DNA from: a virus
DNA length: 64,000 nucleotides
Direction: 5' to 3' (one strand)
IMG/VR virus record: IMGVR_UViG_3300045988_120055
Span: 53,031 to 117,030 of that record
Shown here piece after piece: positions 1 through 53,308 of the stretch; position 1 is the first letter of the stretch, and each line of letters opens with the position of its first letter. The notes under the pieces were generated by a model. That model saw nothing but the letters and a program-made list of their open reading frames with translations. It was not told the origin of the DNA and searched no databases. The translations under genes and the position numbers were made by a program.

Positions 1-648
1 TACGCCATCAATTTTGACTAACTCAAATGCTTTATAGGCGAGCTTTCTTTCCTTTGCTACATTCGCATCTAACTGTCTAATTGTGCCTGCTGCCAGATTT
101 CTTGCGTTCTTGTATTTACCATGTAACACTTCATTGATTTTCTGGAAGTTTTCATAACTGATAACTGATTCGCCACGTACCTCAATACTACGCTTATCAG
201 GAATCTCAAGAGGTAAATTGAAAATCATACGAGCCGTATGAGTCACATCTTCTCCAATTTCTCCATTTCCCCTTGTAATTGCTTGTTTTAAGCGTCCTTT
301 TTCGTACCTTAGTACTACCGTCAAACCGTCTTCCTTCCACGATAAAACACCAATTTTATCCGCAAGAAATTTTTTGACCTCATTGACATCCTTCGTCTTC
401 TGAGCTGATAACATTGGGCGTGTATGCTTTACTTTAGCCAGAGAATCAATTATAAATCCTTGAACGTGGTGGATGGGCGAATTATTCAAAACAACGCCAG
501 AATCTCTCTCAAGTCGTTCTAAAGCAGCGCATAAATCGTCAAATTCTTTATCTGAAATGATCGGATTATCCTCTGCGTAGTACGCATATGAAGCATCATT
601 GATTCTGTCGATCAAGACATTCATTTCTTTCACATATTCAGTTTTCAT
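1..648 (-). CDS. ligA: NAD-dependent DNA ligase (LigA-type), N-terminal part; gene runs off the window start
   Basis: Minus-strand ORF with ATG at 646-648 and AGGAAAA RBS; translation MKTEYVKEMNVLIDRINDASYAYYAEDNPIISDKEFDDL...VKHTRPMLSAQK...ELVKIDGV shows LigA adenylation-domain motifs (YY..D.P.isD.eFD.L; KxDG). Absent from ORF track because truncated. Confidence 0.75.
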   Translation of the reverse strand, partial: MKTEYVKEMNVLIDRINDASYAYYAEDNPIISDKEFDDLCAALERLERDSGVVLNNSPIHHVQGFIIDSLAKVKHTRPMLSAQKTKDVNEVKKFLADKIGVLSWKEDGLTVVLRYEKGRLKQAITRGNGEIGEDVTHTARMIFNLPLEIPDKRSIEVRGESVISYENFQKINEVLHGKYKNARNLAAGTIRQLDANVAKERKLAYKAFELVKIDGV

Positions 649-731: not shown

Positions 732-1370
732 TTACTTCACTACATATATTTTTCTGTGCTGTTGCACATTTATTGTTTCGGAATGTGTTGATTTGAACAC
801 GTCTACATGCATTCCTTTTACTTTGCCTCCACAATCTTCTGCCACAAAGATTGTATCGCCATATCCCTCAATCTTAACTCTTGTTCCATAAGGGATAATG
901 TTTTTATCAACCGCAATCGTATGATACGGTCGAGCAAATTTATGCCCTGCATGATTCCAAGCAATCTTAGATCCATATCCTTCAGAACATTCATAACATG
1001 GACAATATGCCGTGATCAAAAATGTTCCAAGTGAACTCTTTTCAAGTTCTCGCTTTCGCTTCAGCCGCTGTCGTTTAATTCGCAATCGTTTCTTCCGAAG
1101 CTTTTCTAATCGAATCTGCCTTGCCTTCTCTTCATCGGCTTCCTTACATTTCTGATAATGCTCATGAACGTCTTTTAATTCAACGCTTTGACTGATTGGA
1201 TTATTTGAAATCACATTGTCTTGCTTATTTTCTGCAACAGTTGTCTCTGTTGATAATGTTGAAGTCTCCACCGAGGGTCGCTCCTCTGCTTTAACTGTGT
1301 GAGTCATAAAGCCTGAACACATTGCTAAAAAACTAAACGAAATAACTTTCATTAAAAATCTTTTTCTCAT
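732..1370 (-). CDS. secreted 3D-domain protein (YocH/MltA-like cell-wall binding / lytic transglycosylase-like)
   Basis: Signal peptide MRKRFLMKVISFSFLAMCSGFMTHTVKA; KR-rich coiled coil; C-terminal 3D-domain motif ITAYCPCYECSEGYG...AVDKNIIPYGTRVKIEGYGDTIFVAEDCGGKVKG. Start moved from track ATG 1412 to ATG 1370 (AAAGGAG RBS 10 nt upstream; the -10 box lies between the two ATGs). Confidence 0.6.
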   Translation of the reverse strand: MRKRFLMKVISFSFLAMCSGFMTHTVKAEERPSVETSTLSTETTVAENKQDNVISNNPISQSVELKDVHEHYQKCKEADEEKARQIRLEKLRKKRLRIKRQRLKRKRELEKSSLGTFLITAYCPCYECSEGYGSKIAWNHAGHKFARPYHTIAVDKNIIPYGTRVKIEGYGDTIFVAEDCGGKVKGMHVDVFKSTHSETINVQQHRKIYVVK

Positions 1371-1402: not shown

Positions 1403-1440
1403 ATCTTATCATACTTTTTGCACCCTGTCAATAGGTGCAA
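1403..1440 (-). promoter_or_regulatory. sigma-A-type promoter TTGACA-17-TAAGAT with -35 embedded in palindrome TTGCACC-N9-GGTGCAA (copy 1 of duplicated 48-bp element)
   Basis: Minus-strand reading TTGCACCTATTGACAGGGTGCAAAAAGTATGATAAGAT; -35 at 1426-1431, -10 at 1403-1408; near-identical copy at 44463-44500. Confidence 0.55.
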
Positions 1441-1449
1441 GAAAGAAAG

Positions 1450-3702
1450 TTAATTTTTTAAGCTTAACCAGGTGCGCCTCTTATTATGATTTGTTACGAT
1501 ACATCTCTTAAACGCTGCTGGCTCTGCAATGAGCGCAAATCTTTTCTTAGCTCGTGTTAACATCGTATATAGCATACAGTTATCAAGCAATTTGTAATGT
1601 GTGTTGTCAATGATACCAATGACAGTTTGAGCAGCCGATCCTTGAAGCTTATGCGTTGTTAATGCATATGCCAATTGAAGTTGTCCTAACTGAGCGAAAG
1701 AATATTCAATCATCTTCTTATCCATGTCTGGATTCATCATGGCGTGAACAACTTTCTTATCATAATCAATGCCAGTAATGTATCCAATATCTCCATTAAA
1801 TGTGTTTCTTTCATAGTCATTACTGGTTTGAAGCACTTTATCTCCCACATAAAACTTCTTTGTTTTGCCATATGTAACAAACCTTGCATTGGATTTATTT
1901 TTATACACTTCTTTCTGAATTGCTACATTAAGTTCTTCTGTAGAGTTTATGCAACCTGACTTACGAGGAGAGATTACAACCACATTATCCATACCGTCTT
2001 GTTTAACACACGTCATGAACTGCTTTACAACCAAATTAAAAATATTCTCACGATTATTTCTGAAAATGTAAAACATATCATGTAACTCTCCATGAACTTG
2101 TTTAGCACTAAAATCCTCAATTGGAGAAATTGCTCTACGCACTTTTCTAGCATCACTAAGAATACCAGACTTTTCTGCTTGTCTCATTGGCTTCGTTAAT
2201 TGCACTGAATCCAACTCATCCATTTTGAGTAGATCAGAGAAAATGTTACCATATCCAATTGGTGGCAACTGCATATGATCTCCGCTAATAATAATCTTTG
2301 TACCTGGGCGAATTGCCAAAAGTAATTGATAGAACAACCCTGCATTAACCATACTTGCTTCGTCTAAAAGAACTACATCAATTGGTAATGGATTGTTAGC
2401 ATCGTGCATAAACGAGTCTACGCCTTGTGCTTCAAGTAATCGATGAATAGTTCTCGCTTCTAATCCTGTTGCTTCTTGGATTCTCTGTGCCGCCTTAGCA
2501 GATAACGCACATGCAGCAATGCTATAATTTCGTTTCTTATAACATCTGATAATTGGTTTTAATAAGGTAGTTTTACCCGTTCCAGCCTCACCACTAATTA
2601 AAACAACATTTGTCTGTAATGCAGTGTAGATGCCTTTGTTTTGCTCTTCGCTGAACGTAAAACCTTCTTCTTTTTCAACTTCAGCAATAACTTGTCCAAT
2701 TTCGTTTACAGTGATTATCTCTTTCTTCTTGGTAGAATTAGTATCTCTGCGTTCTTGCAACAATGCCAGTATATTCATTTCTGTATCATGGTACTTTTTC
2801 AAACCAATTAGCTCGCCACTAACATAGATGTCTGAAGGAAAATCATTTTCAACATAATCGTCAAATATATGTAGACATTCCCCAACCGTTGCACTAACTT
2901 CTGATCGCAACGTGGCAATCGCCATATATGTATGCCCGTCACTCTCGCCAAGATTCGTTAAATAATACGTCATAAAATAATCAAGTCGATACTTGGAATC
3001 TCTCAACTCTGGACGAATCTTTAAAGCAATATCATCAACTTTCTTAAATCCAAGACCTCTAATCTTAGTTAAAATGTAAGGATTTGTGTTGATTTTATAT
3101 TTTAACTTTTCTGGATCTGGCTCAGCTTCTACTAATTTCTTAATCATATTAAAGGTAATCCCATGAGGCTGTAGCATAACTACAACCTCGGAAATCACAT
3201 AATTATTAATGATCTTCTCTCTGAGCTTCGCCCATGTCTTGTTGCCAAGTCCTTTAATCATAGATGTATCGATAGTCTTGCATTTTCCTGCCATAACATC
3301 CTCAATGATATTTGGATATTCAGCAAGCAAGCTTTCAGCAATTGATTCTTTCGCTTGTGTTTTTAAAAACATTAGCTGATCGGTCTGTGTTTTTGGAACA
3401 TCTGCAACAACCGAAATCGGCTTATATTGATATTCGTGATATTTTTGAGAATAAATACATGTCGCTTTTACATGATACTTTGTCCCAATATATAACTGTT
3501 GAACTTCTCCAACAAGTTTACTTGCAACATATTCTTTATCTCCTGAGTCATCAAATTTATTATCATTGTATGGACTGAATTGTGGTATTTGGTCTTTTGT
3601 ACAAAACGCATAGATACCAAACATTGATTCTTCATTATAAAATATCTGATATGTAGGAATCATTTCAAACTCGCATACCTTTCCGCATGTCTGACTCTCC
3701 AT
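1450..3702 (-). CDS. RecD-like SF1 DNA helicase (ATP-dependent exoDNase alpha-subunit family)
   Basis: Walker A GEAGTGKTTLLKP, Walker B VVLLDEASMV, C-terminal TTHKLQGS motif typical of RecD/Dda/TraA-type helicases; 750 aa. Confidence 0.7.
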   Translation of the reverse strand: MESQTCGKVCEFEMIPTYQIFYNEESMFGIYAFCTKDQIPQFSPYNDNKFDDSGDKEYVASKLVGEVQQLYIGTKYHVKATCIYSQKYHEYQYKPISVVADVPKTQTDQLMFLKTQAKESIAESLLAEYPNIIEDVMAGKCKTIDTSMIKGLGNKTWAKLREKIINNYVISEVVVMLQPHGITFNMIKKLVEAEPDPEKLKYKINTNPYILTKIRGLGFKKVDDIALKIRPELRDSKYRLDYFMTYYLTNLGESDGHTYMAIATLRSEVSATVGECLHIFDDYVENDFPSDIYVSGELIGLKKYHDTEMNILALLQERRDTNSTKKKEIITVNEIGQVIAEVEKEEGFTFSEEQNKGIYTALQTNVVLISGEAGTGKTTLLKPIIRCYKKRNYSIAACALSAKAAQRIQEATGLEARTIHRLLEAQGVDSFMHDANNPLPIDVVLLDEASMVNAGLFYQLLLAIRPGTKIIISGDHMQLPPIGYGNIFSDLLKMDELDSVQLTKPMRQAEKSGILSDARKVRRAISPIEDFSAKQVHGELHDMFYIFRNNRENIFNLVVKQFMTCVKQDGMDNVVVISPRKSGCINSTEELNVAIQKEVYKNKSNARFVTYGKTKKFYVGDKVLQTSNDYERNTFNGDIGYITGIDYDKKVVHAMMNPDMDKKMIEYSFAQLGQLQLAYALTTHKLQGSAAQTVIGIIDNTHYKLLDNCMLYTMLTRAKKRFALIAEPAAFKRCIVTNHNKRRTWLSLKN

Positions 3703-20378: not shown

Positions 20379-20920
20379 TATTTTCTTTCTCCTTTCACAA
20401 CATATGACTCAATCAATCCTTTTCTTAAACGATCATTCATATCCTGAATGGCTTCCTCAATTGTCTTAAATTTACACGAACAAATATGCTCTTTTGTCAA
20501 ATTAACAAATGAATATGTGTCATCGGATTTATTTTTAAAAATAACAACCACTGATTCTTCTCCATCTGGTTTTTTAACAATGAATCTGAGCGAACCTTTT
20601 TGTGTTTCCTTTTTGTTTTCAAGTAAGATAGTATAATTGATTTTTAACCATACACCATCTGCCCATACTTGTTTGATTTTTTCTTCAGCATTTTGAAGTC
20701 TACAATGTCTATAATCAATACTCTCGATATTATAAGCAAATGATTCAATGGCTTCTTTATCATTTTTGATTGTAATTTGACCATACGTTCCATTTCTTCC
20801 ATCTGCAATCGCATCAATAAATTCTTCCACAGTATATTCTTTATCAAGCACGACATCATATTTAGTAGATTTATCGTTATCAGAACGTGCTTGTTTTATT
20901 AATTTAAACATCTCTATCAC
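20378..20920 (-). CDS. hypothetical protein
   Basis: 180-aa ORF. Confidence 0.4.
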   Translation of the reverse strand: MIEMFKLIKQARSDNDKSTKYDVVLDKEYTVEEFIDAIADGRNGTYGQITIKNDKEAIESFAYNIESIDYRHCRLQNAEEKIKQVWADGVWLKINYTILLENKKETQKGSLRFIVKKPDGEESVVVIFKNKSDDTYSFVNLTKEHICSCKFKTIEEAIQDMNDRLRKGLIESYVVKGERK

Positions 20921-21173
20921 CTACTTTCTTATCAAATGTCTCTTGTAAATTTAACCAGAACTGCCCATCGTCAGCAAATCCATAATGGTCTGCCATTGCT
21001 TTCGCAAATTCTTTTGTAACGCTTTGTGATCCGTCAATCAGCCTTTGCACATAATCAACGTCCATACCGATTTTACTCGCAAGCTGATAAGGAGTCATCA
21101 TGCAAGATTCAATAAACTCTTCTAAGCATTCGCCAGGATGAAAAGCAATTTCATCTCCAATCTTTACATACAT
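20904..21173 (-). CDS. HigA-like HTH (XRE-family antitoxin-like) protein
   Basis: FHPGECLEEFIESCMMTPYQLASKIGMDVDYVQRLIDGSQSVTKEFAKAMADHYG resembles the HigA antidote HTH. Confidence 0.5.
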   Translation of the reverse strand: MYVKIGDEIAFHPGECLEEFIESCMMTPYQLASKIGMDVDYVQRLIDGSQSVTKEFAKAMADHYGFADDGQFWLNLQETFDKKVGDRDV

Positions 21174-42403: not shown

Positions 42404-42432
42404 TTGACGAACATGTTTAGAATTGTTATAAT
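42404..42432 (+). promoter_or_regulatory. near-consensus sigma-A promoter TTGACG-17-TATAAT on the plus strand
   Basis: -35 at 42404-42409, 17-bp spacer, -10 at 42427-42432; no plus-strand protein gene downstream. Confidence 0.5.
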
Positions 42433-42550: not shown

Positions 42551-42916
42551 TTAGTTGAAATTTTTAGTTTGTGTGAAAGTAGAAGTTTTACCAAAGACTT
42601 CTGCTTTCTTTTTTATTGTCTGTATTTTTATGCCAACATTGTATCTCTCTTTGTATGTAAATTGCAGGCATTTGATTATGTCAAATATGTCGTCCTGCCT
42701 AATATGAGAGAACAAATTCTCATCTTGAATAAATTCGATCCAATGATATGAAAGATCTTTATCTTTGCCATAGATCTTCATCTTTCTATCATCTGCTCGA
42801 ATCTTATATTCGCTCAGAAACCACGATGACATTTCTGATGAGTGTAAATCAAGTACATCAATATGCATTTGATTTGATTGATTCGCTGCTAACATTTCTA
42901 ATATTTGATTGTCCAT
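42551..42916 (-). CDS. hypothetical protein
   Basis: 121-aa ORF. Confidence 0.4.
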   Translation of the reverse strand: MDNQILEMLAANQSNQMHIDVLDLHSSEMSSWFLSEYKIRADDRKMKIYGKDKDLSYHWIEFIQDENLFSHIRQDDIFDIIKCLQFTYKERYNVGIKIQTIKKKAEVFGKTSTFTQTKNFN

Positions 42917-42930
42917 ACATATACCTTCCT

Positions 42931-43959
42931 TTATTCTGCCATGATTTGATGTACACGATAATTCTTATAGTCCTCATCTTTATATAAATAACCAATAGTT
43001 TTACCAATTACAGTTTGACGATCACTAAATTGTTTCTTTTTTAATCTATATGATATATAATAATTATAATAAAATTTAATTGCAATTTCACTAAATTGAC
43101 GTGCGATTACAGATCGTGCGATTCCTTCTTTTGATTTAATATAATACAAATCTGCAATTGCCTTGATATCCATTTTAGATTTTAAATATTGTATAAAACC
43201 AGAATTAATAACATCAATGGTTGTCAATTTTTCATAAGATAAAGTGTTACCAGTTAATTCTAATTGAGACTGCACATTAGTATATATCCTCTTTTGCTCT
43301 GCTTGATATTCTTCTATATTATTACATTTTTTTCGTGGTATTAATACAAAATCATCATATATATTCGTATCTCCCATTTTCAATTTATATTCATTCAATG
43401 TCTCGATAAAATCTTTGGAGACTGGTTTCCCAAAAATTGTTAAATCATTTTGATTAATATCTGAGAATTTTAGATTTCTTAACTCCTTTCCATTTATCCC
43501 ATTATATAAACTCACAATGTGAAATCTAGTATTCAATTTGGTATCGGCTGATGCATTGCACGACATCAGATTCGAAATAAACGCATTTATTTTATCTGGT
43601 GTAACATAATTAACATTAACTCTATTTGAAAAATATATATCAACTGCTAATTGCAAGTTTATAAATTTATCATTAACAAATGGATTATATTTAATGTAAT
43701 TTTGTTCATATGCATAAGTATATAGTTTGACGAGCTGGTCATATCTTTTTTTAATAGAATTCATACTTTTGGTTTTTTTACCTCTAGTATCTGATAATAT
43801 AGCCTCTTGTATTGTACCTGGTGCATACGTTAACCCAGATTCATTGTCGTCCGCAATATCAGAATCTAATAACCAATTCCATGTTGGGCGACGTGATTCT
43901 GATACGTGAGAATCTATATAATTTTGTATCAATTCTTTATTATTCATAATGTTCTCCAT
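42931..43959 (-). CDS. hypothetical protein (342 aa)
   Basis: Long ORF directly downstream of the MazF-like gene; no catalytic motif recognised. Confidence 0.4.
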   Translation of the reverse strand: MENIMNNKELIQNYIDSHVSESRRPTWNWLLDSDIADDNESGLTYAPGTIQEAILSDTRGKKTKSMNSIKKRYDQLVKLYTYAYEQNYIKYNPFVNDKFINLQLAVDIYFSNRVNVNYVTPDKINAFISNLMSCNASADTKLNTRFHIVSLYNGINGKELRNLKFSDINQNDLTIFGKPVSKDFIETLNEYKLKMGDTNIYDDFVLIPRKKCNNIEEYQAEQKRIYTNVQSQLELTGNTLSYEKLTTIDVINSGFIQYLKSKMDIKAIADLYYIKSKEGIARSVIARQFSEIAIKFYYNYYISYRLKKKQFSDRQTVIGKTIGYLYKDEDYKNYRVHQIMAE

Positions 43960-43961
43960 TT

Positions 43962-44411
43962 CTAGGATGCCATTGCATTCATGTACGATAACATGCCGTT
44001 TTGTATTAAAATGCCATGTCCTATTTTTAACATTAAAGATAGATCAGATATTCTTCCCCAATACTCTAAAAGATTATTCTTTGGAATTGTTCTTCCTTGC
44101 TCTAAATACACTTGTGATACCATTTTTAATCCATTACTGGTATTTGGATAAATGGTCACATGTGTCGGTATCCAGTTCCTTAATTTTTTTGTAATTGGAT
44201 ACACGTTAATCTCTGTGCTCGTATTGTTACAAATATTATTAGAATAGACAATAACTGGTCTTTTCCCATGCAAGATATGGCTACCTTCGATTTTCGGCAA
44301 ATCTGCAAAATATATTCCCCAAACTTGAGGATTTTGATATTTACCATATACATATTCTTTTCTTTTTCTGTTATCGTTTCCTTTTCTTTCTTTGTTAGTA
44401 TATCCGTTCAT
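43962..44411 (-). CDS. MazF/PemK-family endoribonuclease toxin-like protein with K/R-rich N-terminal extension
   Basis: GIYFADLPKIEGSHILHGKRPVIVYSNNICNNTSTEINVYPITKK...PTHVTI fits the PemK/MazF pattern (G.E..g.RPvlVvS....N......v.P.Ts). Start moved to ATG 44411 (GAGGGA RBS); the track ATG 44456 coincides with the predicted TSS. Confidence 0.6.
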   Translation of the reverse strand: MNGYTNKERKGNDNRKRKEYVYGKYQNPQVWGIYFADLPKIEGSHILHGKRPVIVYSNNICNNTSTEINVYPITKKLRNWIPTHVTIYPNTSNGLKMVSQVYLEQGRTIPKNNLLEYWGRISDLSLMLKIGHGILIQNGMLSYMNAMAS

Positions 44412-44462
44412 TTTTACGTCCCTCAACTTTCCCCAGTTGTATTTTTTTGTTTTCATGAATTA

Positions 44463-44500
44463 AATATACCATACTTTTTGCACCCTGTCAATAAGTGCAA
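44463..44500 (-). promoter_or_regulatory. sigma-A-type promoter TTGACA-17-TATATT inside palindrome TTGCACC-N9-AGTGCAA (copy 2 of duplicated 48-bp element)
   Basis: 47 of 48 nt identical to 1420-1467; -35 at 44486-44491, -10 at 44463-44468. Confidence 0.55.
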
Positions 44501-44572
44501 GAAAGAAAGTTAATTTTTATTGTGAACAAAGAATCTCTACATTTCTTATTATAATGCTACCATAGAACAAAA

Positions 44573-46375: not shown

Positions 46376-47374
46376 TTACTTAATAATCTCATTCAATAAT
46401 TCTTCCAATGTTTCTAAATTATCCATATGCACGTTATAATCTTGTTCATTTGCATCTTGCTGCCCCATATCATAAGCACATTTAATCAAATCTAAGATGT
46501 AGTCTTTGCTTGCTGTCACAAGATTCTTATTCTTTCCATCAAAAATGCCTTTAATAATATCCTTGTACGTATCAGAAATGTCGCAGAATAACTCATGTGT
46601 TTCTTCCTCGGTAATTGTTGCGTACAAGAATGTCATAGCTGGGTTGCTATGGTTCATCAATCGCATTAACTCATACAGTACGTTCTGATCATTCTTGTGA
46701 GTTACAAGAGTCCAGTAAACAAAGTTTTTTCGTAATGTATGAGTTCCTACGTTATCTTCAATACCTACTGCTCTTGCTCCCTTTTTCACAAAATCTAAGG
46801 CATTAGCTTCTGTCATATGTCCATCTGATCCTGACTTACATGTGCAGAAAATATAATTATCCATTGGAATTTCTCTATTAACTCTAATATCATACCTTGT
46901 TCCTGCAATTGCATCAAAGAAAATCTCTACTGCCTCTTTGACAATATCATTGAAAAATACAGTTCTGAACTTCTTTGTTTTTTTCTCTTGCTTTCTCACA
47001 CGATCATTATCTCCTAACAAATCACACCATTTAAGTCTGACGATATCAGAAATACGATAGGCTGTATTGTTTCCAATGCATACTAGAAGATAGTTTCTAG
47101 CAGCAACATATTTCTTATAATCCGTATACACAGAATCAATCTGCTCAAAAAAATAATCACAGAAAGCCTTAAACTTCTCTGGATTCTTAATCGGATAAAC
47201 TAAAGATGATACACCTTTCTGTTTGTTAGATCGAGTCCATTTAGGGTTTCCGTCCTTGCGTCTTTTAATCTTTGTTTCGGATTCTTCTGCGTTATTATTG
47301 TTTGCTGTTTCAATAACTTCAAATTGTGTTGCTGCCATGATAATCTCTCCTCTCTTAGTTGTTACACTGTTCAC
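46376..47374 (-). CDS. tyrosine recombinase / phage-type integrase
   Basis: Catalytic-domain motifs: R in TAYRISDIVRLKW, H-x-x-R in GTHTLRKNF, and H...Y in NHSNPAMTFLYATI. Confidence 0.65.
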   Translation of the reverse strand: MNSVTTKRGEIIMAATQFEVIETANNNNAEESETKIKRRKDGNPKWTRSNKQKGVSSLVYPIKNPEKFKAFCDYFFEQIDSVYTDYKKYVAARNYLLVCIGNNTAYRISDIVRLKWCDLLGDNDRVRKQEKKTKKFRTVFFNDIVKEAVEIFFDAIAGTRYDIRVNREIPMDNYIFCTCKSGSDGHMTEANALDFVKKGARAVGIEDNVGTHTLRKNFVYWTLVTHKNDQNVLYELMRLMNHSNPAMTFLYATITEEETHELFCDISDTYKDIIKGIFDGKNKNLVTASKDYILDLIKCAYDMGQQDANEQDYNVHMDNLETLEELLNEIIK

Positions 47375-52213: not shown

Positions 52214-53308
52214 CTACTCTTCTGAAATAATTTCCACCGCAGCTTCATAAAATCTATTATATAAAGTTGCATTTGTTTTAATAAGCTGAGATTTAGACAG
52301 TCCATGAGCATACTCATCCCAGTTAACGCCATTCTCTGTCATCTTAGTATAGATTTTCCGATAAACAGAAGTTCCACCTTTAGACTTATTTCCAATATGA
52401 TTAGCATAATTGGTAATCTTGATCTTCATTTCTTCCCAATCAGGCTGTGCATTTTCTTTTCTGAACTGTCGCAGAAGTTTTTCCAATGAATTAACTAGCA
52501 GATCAGGGTATTTATCATAACAAAGGTCAATTGTTGGGACATTACCTCTTTCTCCAATATTATACTTCTCTTTGTATTCTTTTCGATCCTGTTCCCACAC
52601 AATCCCATATGTGTTGGTAAGATACCTGTATGCCTCTCTAAGAATATCTCTAGTAGTGGTTCCTAGTTCGTCAGATTCTTTTAGAATATCATCAATGATA
52701 GAGTAGACATTAGATTTCCATTCATTAAGTTTGTATTCTGCAATAACGCTTTCCGTATCTACTACTGGAATATCTTTCGTAGGTTTACCGATCTGCTTAT
52801 ACAGTTCTTTCCGTTCGGCTTTCATTTCTTTAACAATATCTGCCAGCTGATTAAATCCCTTGATAGTAACCTTATACAGGCGTTCATTGTTTCTTTCCAT
52901 CTGCTTCATAAGTTCTGTCTGCTCTGTAAAAAATTGCTCCACTGTTGTTACAGGAGTGCCTGTTCTTAATTTTCCATGACGATAAGCTCCAATCACATCC
53001 CATACCCAATCCATAAAGGCATCAGCTTTGGGCTGTCTACTTCTTCTACAAATTTCATAAATGCCACGTTCATTATAGATATAACTAGAATAAGATTTTC
53101 CATCAGTTGTTTCCAATTTGGTAACAACTGAATCTCTATCTAGTCTTTCTTTATTGGCATCGTGAATTTTTGCAATGGCGACTCTAGGATCTTTATATTC
53201 TAATGCAAGTCCAATCTGTTGCCTGCTCATCCACAACTGATCGTCAGCACTATAAAAATCACACGTTATATCGTTAAAATTTTCCGTTTTTACTAACTGT
53301 ATGTTCAT
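52214..53308 (-). CDS. Bro-N domain phage antirepressor-like protein
   Basis: Bro-N signature ...LWMSRQQIGLALEYKDPRVAIAKIHD...SYIYNERGIYEICRRSRQPKADAFMDWVWDVI. Confidence 0.6.
   Translation of the reverse strand: MNIQLVKTENFNDITCDFYSADDQLWMSRQQIGLALEYKDPRVAIAKIHDANKERLDRDSVVTKLETTDGKSYSSYIYNERGIYEICRRSRQPKADAFMDWVWDVIGAYRHGKLRTGTPVTTVEQFFTEQTELMKQMERNNERLYKVTIKGFNQLADIVKEMKAERKELYKQIGKPTKDIPVVDTESVIAEYKLNEWKSNVYSIIDDILKESDELGTTTRDILREAYRYLTNTYGIVWEQDRKEYKEKYNIGERGNVPTIDLCYDKYPDLLVNSLEKLLRQFRKENAQPDWEEMKIKITNYANHIGNKSKGGTSVYRKIYTKMTENGVNWDEYAHGLSKSQLIKTNATLYNRFYEAAVEIISEE

Follow-up and report, generated by a model that had tools for sequence, protein, structure and literature searches.

To our knowledge, the Bacillus phages SPbeta and phi3T are the only ones from which master repressors with an integrase fold have been described; both proteins act as monomers on asymmetric boxes. 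In SPbeta, the element SPBRE is present in about 10 promoter regions, including those of yonP (upstream of yonO) and yopM (whose operon ends with mrpR), and is bound by MrpR (YopR), which has a recombinase fold without recombinase activity; recombinase targets themselves are 'typically palindromic' (PMC10516654). The phi3T protein SroF encircles, as a monomer, an asymmetric 26-bp A-tract box, CAGTAATTTTATTTTTATTCTTAATG, with helix alpha2 of its CB domain reading the major groove, and multiple specific SroF/antirepressor pairs exist (bioRxiv 10.1101/2025.11.27.690993). Here we analyzed a 64,000-nt stretch of viral DNA (positions 53,031 to 117,030 of IMG/VR record IMGVR_UViG_3300045988_120055; hereafter, the window), which carries two copies of a 52-nt repeat combining a promoter with an inverted repeat around the -35 hexamer. 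A preliminary description of the window had proposed that these copies are promoter-operators under a shared repressor. Our results suggest a regulon of three promoters controlled by a dyad-binding, SroF/MrpR-like repressor of 342 aa. We consider this statement as a whole moderately probable, and its promoter-operator-regulon part, taken alone, highly probable.

Profile-library scans of the window identified a RecD-like helicase, an ERCC4-type nuclease, a DnaE-like polymerase and a DnaD-like loader; a single sigma factor, Ant/Bro proteins, HicAB and NAD-salvage enzymes are also encoded. The window corresponds to the non-structural half of a large phage genome. Every sizeable open reading frame (ORF) lies on the minus strand, and the base composition of the whole window, strongly asymmetric between strands (plus strand: G 12.7%, C 21.0%, T 37.7%, A 28.7%), fits a single coding orientation. 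Megablast detected no close annotated relative among 50,697 phage records. The relatives used below are about 55 viral contigs of 80-170 kb encoding a YonO-type RNA polymerase, a 942-aa protein that shares ~45% identity, along more than 80% of its length, with the protein occupying the YonO position in SPbeta, phi3T and SPR, and for whose homologues a weak RdRP Pfam match is on record. On the strength of this similarity the phage is placed in the SPbeta-like supergroup, as what appears to be an uncultured gut phage of ~160 kb.

The two repeat copies are identical at 50 of 52 positions and constitute the longest high-identity repeat in the window. The preliminary description of a 48-bp repeat with a single mismatch thus stands in extended form: the 48-mer is exact at 1411-1458, has one mismatch at 44471-44518 and gave 0 matches in dinucleotide shuffles. 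The second copy had been placed correctly, and the overall span given for the first, 1403-1467, covers the element, but the interval of 1420-1467 assigned to copy 1 itself was displaced by 9 nt. The features of the two copies are as follows.

Positions 1407-1458, minus strand: repeat copy 1 (context A), 52 nt, comprising the upstream flank, the putative operator, the -35, the spacer and the TG of the extended -10.
Positions 1403-1431, minus strand: promoter P_A, with the -35 TTGACA at 1426-1431, a 17-nt spacer containing TATG (TG at 1410-1411) and the -10 TAAGAT at 1403-1408.
Positions 1415-1443, minus strand: putative operator copy 1, 10-9-10, reading TTCTTGCACC / TATTGACAG / GGTGCAAAAA, symmetric at 9/10 positions.
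Positions 44467-44518, minus strand: repeat copy 2 (context B), 52 nt.
Positions 44463-44491, minus strand: promoter P_B, with the -35 TTGACA at 44486-44491, a 17-nt spacer containing TATG and the -10 TATATT at 44463-44468.
Positions 44475-44503, minus strand: putative operator copy 2, reading TTCTTGCACT / TATTGACAG / GGTGCAAAAA, symmetric at 8/10 positions.

Judged by its sequence, each copy is a strong, near-consensus sigma-A/sigma-70 promoter with a TRTG-type extended -10. The minus-strand element reads AAAAATTAACTTTCTTTC TTGCACC TA TTGACA G GGTGCAA AAAGTATGnTA and onward. The arrangement proposed earlier for this strand, TTGACA-17-TAAGAT/TATATT, was recovered by a promoter scan (1431 to 1403 and 44491 to 44463), in which P_A and P_B, both with TG before the -10, were among about six sites of such quality in 64 kb. 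The predicted transcription starts lie near 1396 for P_A and near 44456 for P_B. The RecD-like helicase gene upstream ends inside repeat copy 1, with its stop codon at 1450-1452.

The -35 hexamer occupies the 9-bp spacer of a 10-9-10 inverted repeat, and the putative operator of copy 1 is predicted to span about -47 to -19. The palindrome reported at first, TTGCACC-N9-GGTGCAA with the -35 in its loop, is perfect in copy 1 (1418-1440), although a 10-9-10 register describes the arms better; in this register, symmetry of at least 8/10 has a background frequency of 8e-4 per window position. The single arm mismatch in copy 2, likewise part of that report, is a plus-strand A at 44494, which leaves 8/10 instead of 9/10 symmetric positions at the promoter of the operon that encodes the candidate repressor. 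This base is private to the window genome: it is absent from the B copies retrieved from IMG/VR through anchors, from the closest contigs and from contigs with an identical MazF-like protein. Either a sequencing error or a mutation of the operator could account for it.

The exact 23-nt core of the element was found in 92 stretches of IMG/VR contigs, mostly of 80-170 kb. A retrieval in which the two bases ahead of the -35 and the single base behind it were unconstrained yielded 131 copies and, since the first scan had a fixed core, the loci were retrieved again via anchors outside the element. Among 40 unique sequences of the main lineage, the arms (TGCACC/GGTGCA), the -35, AGTATG and positions A2 and T6 of the -10 were invariant or nearly so, AGTATG without exception, whereas the bases beside the -35 within the spacer varied (TA..G, CG..A, TA..A), as did the outer flanks. 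TATGn or TGTGn was present in every copy. Beyond the main lineage, the arms are replaced by three other sequences. The four arm types, with half-sites GGTGCAArrA, GTGkCAATAA, GCAnnTAAAG and GmAGATAArG, are all 8-9/10 symmetric in the same register, which indicates that symmetry has been preserved via compensatory replacement.

Main arm type: TTGCACC / GGTGCAA, seen in contexts A, B and C.
Divergent arm type: CTTTAAnnGC / GCAnnTAAAG, seen in contexts A, B and C.
Third arm type (contigs L170-172): TTGACAC / GTGGCAA, seen in contexts B and C.
Fourth arm type (contig L173): TTTATCTGC / GAAGATAAG, seen in context B.

Despite the replaced arms, the -35, the 17-nt spacing, TRTG and the A2 and T6 positions of the -10 are retained in all four lineages, one of which has TTGACT. 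Three of the five metagenome matches for the third arm type proved to be unrelated chance matches. From the invariance of the arms beside variable neighbors, and from the four symmetric versions at one position, we infer that the inverted repeat functions as the operator of a regulatory protein, in line with the earlier reading of a sigma-70-type promoter with its -35 inside a dyad operator.

All 131 copies fall into only three contexts: A (n=47), 3' of the helicase gene and ahead of the 3D-domain gene; B (n=52), ahead of the MazF-like gene and then the gene of a 342-aa integrase-fold protein; and C (n=32), ~4.2 kb past the right end of the window on the opposite strand, where two transcription arms diverge and the element heads the polymerase operon. 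The search for further copies proposed in the preliminary description gave none within the window at three or fewer mismatches, where isolated half-sites are scattered inside genes, and a third outside it. Divergent arms occupy A, B and C in four contigs, and A and B in a fifth (133024), from which the C copy was not recovered. The third arm type is found at both B and C in one 96-kb contig, and main arms at all recovered copies in about 50 contigs. No genome with mixed arm types was seen among the contigs examined, and for three of the four arm types distant copies within one genome share their arms. The distant copies thus change together, as expected of the small regulon under one regulator that had been postulated; its predicted promoters number three, not two.

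The arms change between genomes that are otherwise nearly the same. Proteins of the divergent and main lineages are 93-99% identical along the backbone (helicase 98%, 3D protein 97%, nuclease 97%, p106 97%, DnaD-like protein 96%, HicB 98.7%). As the flanking coding sequences are near-unchanged, a promoter patch of ~90 nt at A must have been replaced between them. Our comparison with the divergent lineage covers ~45% of the genome. Of the proteins testable, only two, encoded side by side in the P_B operon, partition by arm type.

Positions 43962-44411, minus strand: P_B gene 1, a PemK/MazF-like protein (PF02452, E 1.7e-15), with the conserved start ATGAACGG after the ribosome-binding site (RBS) GAGGGA.
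Positions 42931-43959, minus strand: P_B gene 2, a 342-aa tyrosine-recombinase-fold protein and candidate repressor, whose alleles partition exactly with arm type.
Positions 42551-42916, minus strand: P_B gene 3, a 121-aa protein (p121), 92% identical between main and divergent lineages, without partition by arm type.

Alleles of the 342-aa protein share 97% identity when they belong to one arm type and 55-73% when the types differ; the corresponding values for the MazF-like protein are 100% and 70-87%. Closer pairs of 342-aa alleles accompany more similar half-sites. The 342-aa protein has a tyrosine-recombinase fold (CB and CAT domains) that matches DNA-bound Cre, XerH and Tn1549 Int. Differences among its alleles cluster in helix 2 of the CB domain (residues 21-32, within an invariant W27/W29 frame) and in the N-terminal helices of the CAT domain, while the C-terminal third is conserved. 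The family is small, with 7 clusters at 90% identity and 2 further full-length representatives in 1.8 billion proteins; tblastn of the protein against the 50,697 phage records gave no match. It also has no match to Pfam Phage_integrase and, judged by eye, carries N, S or D where the box-I Arg is expected, with no R / H-x-x-R motif apparent. This protein, which the preliminary description did not name among the possible regulators, is our best candidate. Whether it is the protein that binds the arms we regard as evenly balanced on the present evidence.

Several points weigh against this assignment and against the wider reading. The 342-aa gene adjoins copy B, and physical linkage could explain that one association; what carries the argument is that the A and C copies, far from the gene, change likewise. 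With ~45% of the divergent genome inspected, a gene elsewhere in it could partition equally well, and gene conversion between copies could help to homogenize the arms. The 342-aa protein has no detectable sequence similarity to MrpR/SroF, and phmmer against all Protein Data Bank (PDB) chains returned none at E<=1. A dyad site is without direct precedent in the SroF protein class. Lastly, neither the 23-nt core nor the 342-aa family gave a match in 185,579 reference bacterial and archaeal genomes, and no host or prophage was found there, so that a lysogenic role of the repressor is hypothetical.

The other regulators considered did not follow the arms. An XRE-type helix-turn-helix (HTH) cassette near P_C (L119 3864-4100) looked like a swapped immunity gene in a segment exchanged between lineages, but was ruled out: its allele a3 accompanies main arms in some genomes and divergent arms in others, and no fewer than five alleles go with main arms. 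The cassette, ~1.3 kb past the right end of the window, is hypervariable: genomes that are syntenic elsewhere have at least five unrelated alleles at this position, with a recombination breakpoint inside the 3' end of the gene and a tail, ...DNTSKDQ, common to the alleles. HicB, one of the regulators suggested in the preliminary description, is excluded by its 98.7% identity in the lineage with different arms; the XRE-type protein at 30055, the HigA-like protein and the sigma factor, also named there, are still candidates. The intact-looking int332 recombinase (46376-47374, minus strand) keeps 95-97% identity through three arm types, and two genomes that agree in their arms have versions of it at 71% identity; p106 and p121 are conserved across arm changes, and p218, p154 and p441 vary without them. 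The int332 gene lies 2.4 kb from the 342-aa gene. Its product, in which the R, H-x-x-R, H and Y motifs are present, is similar to 'integrases' encoded mid-genome in Streptococcus and Bacillus phages, and the 342-aa protein is an orphan.

These exclusions bear on the strongest alternative, in which the promoter-operators are real, the arms are bound by some other factor, either an unsampled phage regulator or a host protein, and the MazF-like/integrase-fold cassette merely hitch-hikes. The divergent-lineage genomes were sampled in part, further genes have also diverged (those at 35371, 36222, 39831 and 62636, and the DnaE-like gene), and candidates exist in the HTH protein at 30055-30258, the HigA-like protein at 20904-21173 and a protein of the structural arm; moreover, proteins of the SroF type are monomeric binders of asymmetric sites (bioRxiv 10.1101/2025.11.27.690993). 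We nevertheless judge this alternative unlikely. Every testable candidate outside the cassette (XRE, int332, HicB, p218, p154, p441) fails, four arm specificities among phages of near-identical backbone are hard to reconcile with a host factor, and the HTH node at 30 kb has its own, unrelated repeats. This node consists of back-to-back strong promoters at 29973 (minus strand) and 30005 (plus strand) beside a 68-aa HTH gene at 30055-30258, which has its own terminator and is the only clear plus-strand gene in the window; direct repeats, ACTTCTTGAA, surround the promoters (29900-30260), and the node is unrelated in sequence to the palindrome.

Under the reading with the 342-aa repressor, the phage would carry three promoter-operators, P_A, P_B and P_C, recognized by the primary sigma factor of the host. 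A single phage-encoded repressor, the 342-aa product of the second gene of the P_B operon, after the MazF-like gene, would bind both arms, one protomer per arm, and would cover about -47 to -19, keeping sigma region 4 off the -35, so that three operons would be shut off together. With its gene inside the P_B operon, the circuit would be autoregulated, like those of MrpR and SroF in SPbeta and phi3T. Transcription from the sites, repression as opposed to another effect, dimeric binding and the identity of the binder are what we infer from the sequence patterns.

Such a system would best be filed, by analogy, as a variant of the SPBRE-MrpR/SroF kind. Both belong to large SPbeta-like phages with a YonO-type RNA polymerase, and in both a short element is repeated in the promoter regions of several operons, including the recombinase-fold protein's own operon and the divergence point upstream of the polymerase gene. 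Several specificities coexist in the phage family, and there is a tie to MazF biology. The differences are equally plain. The GC-containing 10-9-10 dyad implies two protomers, whereas SroF is a monomer on an asymmetric A-tract box; there are three sites per genome, compared with ~10 in SPbeta; the 342-aa gene is second, after a phage-borne MazF-like gene, where the MrpR gene is the last of six; and the proteins share no detectable homology. Neither arbitrium genes nor a Sar-like antirepressor came to light, although no search aimed at them was made. In SPbetaL1 we found ATACA-N7-TGTAT repeated at four promoter-like sites (L179 1342-1430, 4572-4596, 5484-5513), which is presumably SPBRE. In the yonP promoter it forms the spacer that separates TAGACA from TATAAT, unlike the element studied here, which brackets the -35. 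No sequence kinship of the window element to SPBRE or to the SroF box was found.

An improbable alternative is that the inverted repeat acts as a nucleic-acid structure, either an RNA hairpin that stabilizes or processes read-through transcripts or a DNA cruciform or hairpin read by polymerase. The compensatory changes do preserve arm complementarity, the predicted RNA hairpins have energies between -4.8 and -11.7 kcal/mol, a G-U pair would result in the sense RNA from the window's private C-to-T change and, since no terminator lies between the helicase gene and the element in context A, the element would be transcribed. A hairpin, however, needs complementarity only, yet the copies in a genome share arm sequence, and every copy of the divergent type has its mismatches at the same two inner positions of the half-site (GCAnnTAAAG), a pattern of uncontacted bases and not of a stem. 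In both orientations and in all three unrelated contexts, the loop coincides exactly with the -35 region of a consensus promoter whose spacing stays at 17 nt. No T-run adjoins the palindrome on either strand, which rules out an intrinsic terminator and deprives a hairpin of a U-tract for termination, and no Rfam family matches the element.

Still less probable, in our view, is that the copies are substrates or products of recombination (core-type sites of a tyrosine recombinase, a mobile promoter cassette or a scar) without a regulatory role. The core sites of tyrosine recombinases, such as loxP (13-8-13), dif (11-6-11) and FRT, likewise have inverted arms of ~10 bp around a short asymmetric spacer, the fold of the 342-aa protein matches Cre, XerH and Tn1549 Int, and two recombinase-fold genes lie nearby. 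Sequence has also passed between copies: contig L098 has a C-like patch in the B context, and the window's A copy has B-type flanks. Unlike in recombination sites, the 9-bp spacer here is the -35 element, and spacers differ between partner sites, CGTTGACAA at C versus TATTGACAG at A and B in most genomes, usually at 3/9 positions, which would block strand exchange. A recombination scar shared with unrelated contexts had been named in the preliminary description as a possible refutation. Against it, the left and right neighbors of A, B and C are constant in ~55 contigs, none of which was seen to have a chimeric junction, an inversion or a deletion between copies, and a scar would not retain a correctly placed consensus promoter at the head of three operons through four versions of the sequence. 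Alleles of int332 are independent of arm type, and the 342-aa protein gave no match to the catalytic-domain signature of Pfam, nor are the motifs noted above apparent in it. The PeSL cassettes of T4-type phages, which Arbiol et al. are said to have described in 2010, reportedly are numerous mobile early promoters that flank variable ORFs in hyperplastic regions. They resemble our element as a repeated early-promoter sequence with a stem-loop and recombination between copies, and differ from it in that here there are three copies in fixed contexts with an arm type common across each genome.

We give hardly any credence to three strong constitutive early promoters kept alike by gene conversion, with arm symmetry incidental: lytic and SPbeta-like phages often reuse near-identical early promoters and gene conversion is evident, but four unrelated arm sequences independently reach 8-9/10 symmetry against the background given above, the arms are invariant while neighboring promoter-neutral bases vary, and the other strong sigma-A-type promoters of the window are without the arms.

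Two further classes of regulatory system invite comparison with the repressor-operator reading. In lambdoid heteroimmunity (imm434, imm21, P22), a swapped repressor allele is accompanied by matching operator changes, the operators overlap promoter hexamers and the repressor is autoregulated. Related genomes here likewise differ by an allele of the candidate repressor plus matching operators. Lambdoid operators, however, are clustered by the repressor and move with it as one block, whereas here operators 24-43 kb away are replaced too, in a backbone of 97-98% identity; and lambdoid repressors are HTH proteins, whereas the fold here is that of a recombinase and the classical-looking XRE cassette does not match the arms. 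Promoters of autoregulated type II toxin-antitoxin systems such as mazEF and higBA offer a different parallel: the palindrome overlaps the promoter of an operon that opens with a PemK/MazF-like gene, and the MazF-like protein co-varies with the operator. No antitoxin of the MazE, ribbon-helix-helix (RHH) or HTH type was found beside the MazF-like gene, whose neighbors p106 and p121 have no Pfam or PHROG match, and the sole DNA-binding fold nearby is the 342-aa recombinase-like protein. Unlike in mazEF and higBA, the same operator is also present at two unrelated distant operons.

Taken furthest, the data would suggest that, in an uncultured family of ~160-kb SPbeta-like gut phages, an orphan recombinase-fold family serves as a dimeric master repressor at lox-like 10-9-10 sites around the -35 of three early promoters, with at least four orthogonal specificities, and that operators 24-43 kb away are replaced to match when the repressor and MazF-like cassette is exchanged. 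We offer this tentatively and hold it somewhat more doubtful than sound. Were it true, the immunity determinant would be a dispersed, co-evolving set and not one contiguous immunity region, which raises how dispersed operators get replaced together upon an immunity change. The integrase-fold repressor principle would reach an abundant, uncultured group of large gut phages, and a second, dyad-type and recombinase-like binding architecture would tie repressor function to ancestral recombinase DNA recognition. Four natural protein/operator pairs in nearly isogenic backbones would provide a specificity-swap system and orthogonal repressor/operator parts. The switch points would be the phage RNA-polymerase operon, the repressor/MazF-like operon and the 3D-protein/ligase operon.

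The genes reported immediately downstream of the two window copies, for a 3D-domain and a MazF-like protein, are borne out by their PF06725 and PF02452 matches. A longer MazF-like ORF beginning at 44456 is frame-broken in relatives. In the P_A operon, the first two genes are as follows.

Positions 732-1370, minus strand: P_A gene 1, a secreted 3D-domain protein (PF06725, E 4.7e-12) with a signal peptide, starting MRKRF... after the RBS AAAGGAG.
Positions 1-647, minus strand: P_A gene 2, the 5' part of an NAD-dependent DNA-ligase-like ORF with a KxDG motif, its function assigned from sequence motifs.

The ligase-like ORF runs past the left end of the window and is 663 aa long in a relative (L013); more genes follow it in relatives. 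The region after the 3D gene looks free of ORFs only because this one, which crosses the window edge, was omitted from the ORF lists. The P_C operon contains, besides the polymerase gene, a second 3D-domain gene (L119 13147-13536). Context C is preceded by an ORF-poor stretch of ~3.7 kb (L119 3100-6800), which is strand-asymmetric (C/A-rich), lies between the divergent arms upstream of P_C and could harbor an origin or non-coding RNAs. SPbetaL1 has a comparable ORF-free gap ahead of yonP/yonO (L179 4522-5536).

Convergent with the P_B operon, a strong plus-strand promoter at 42404-42432 (TTGACG-17-TGtTATAAT) is followed ~145 nt later by a terminator with a 15-bp stem (42575-42618). The segment 42404-42618 is 92% identical across four lineages, exceeding the flanking genes, and contains two internal hairpins with compensatory changes; it has no Rfam match and is a candidate small RNA of ~180 nt. 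On the minus strand at 30299-30436, Rfam RF00005 matches a tRNA gene over the full-length model (46.4 bits), with the 138-nt length leaving an insert of ~67 nt; ARAGORN made no call. The NAD-salvage set of the window comprises a NAMPT-like gene (33905-35374) and an isochorismatase/nicotinamidase-like gene (36222-36773).

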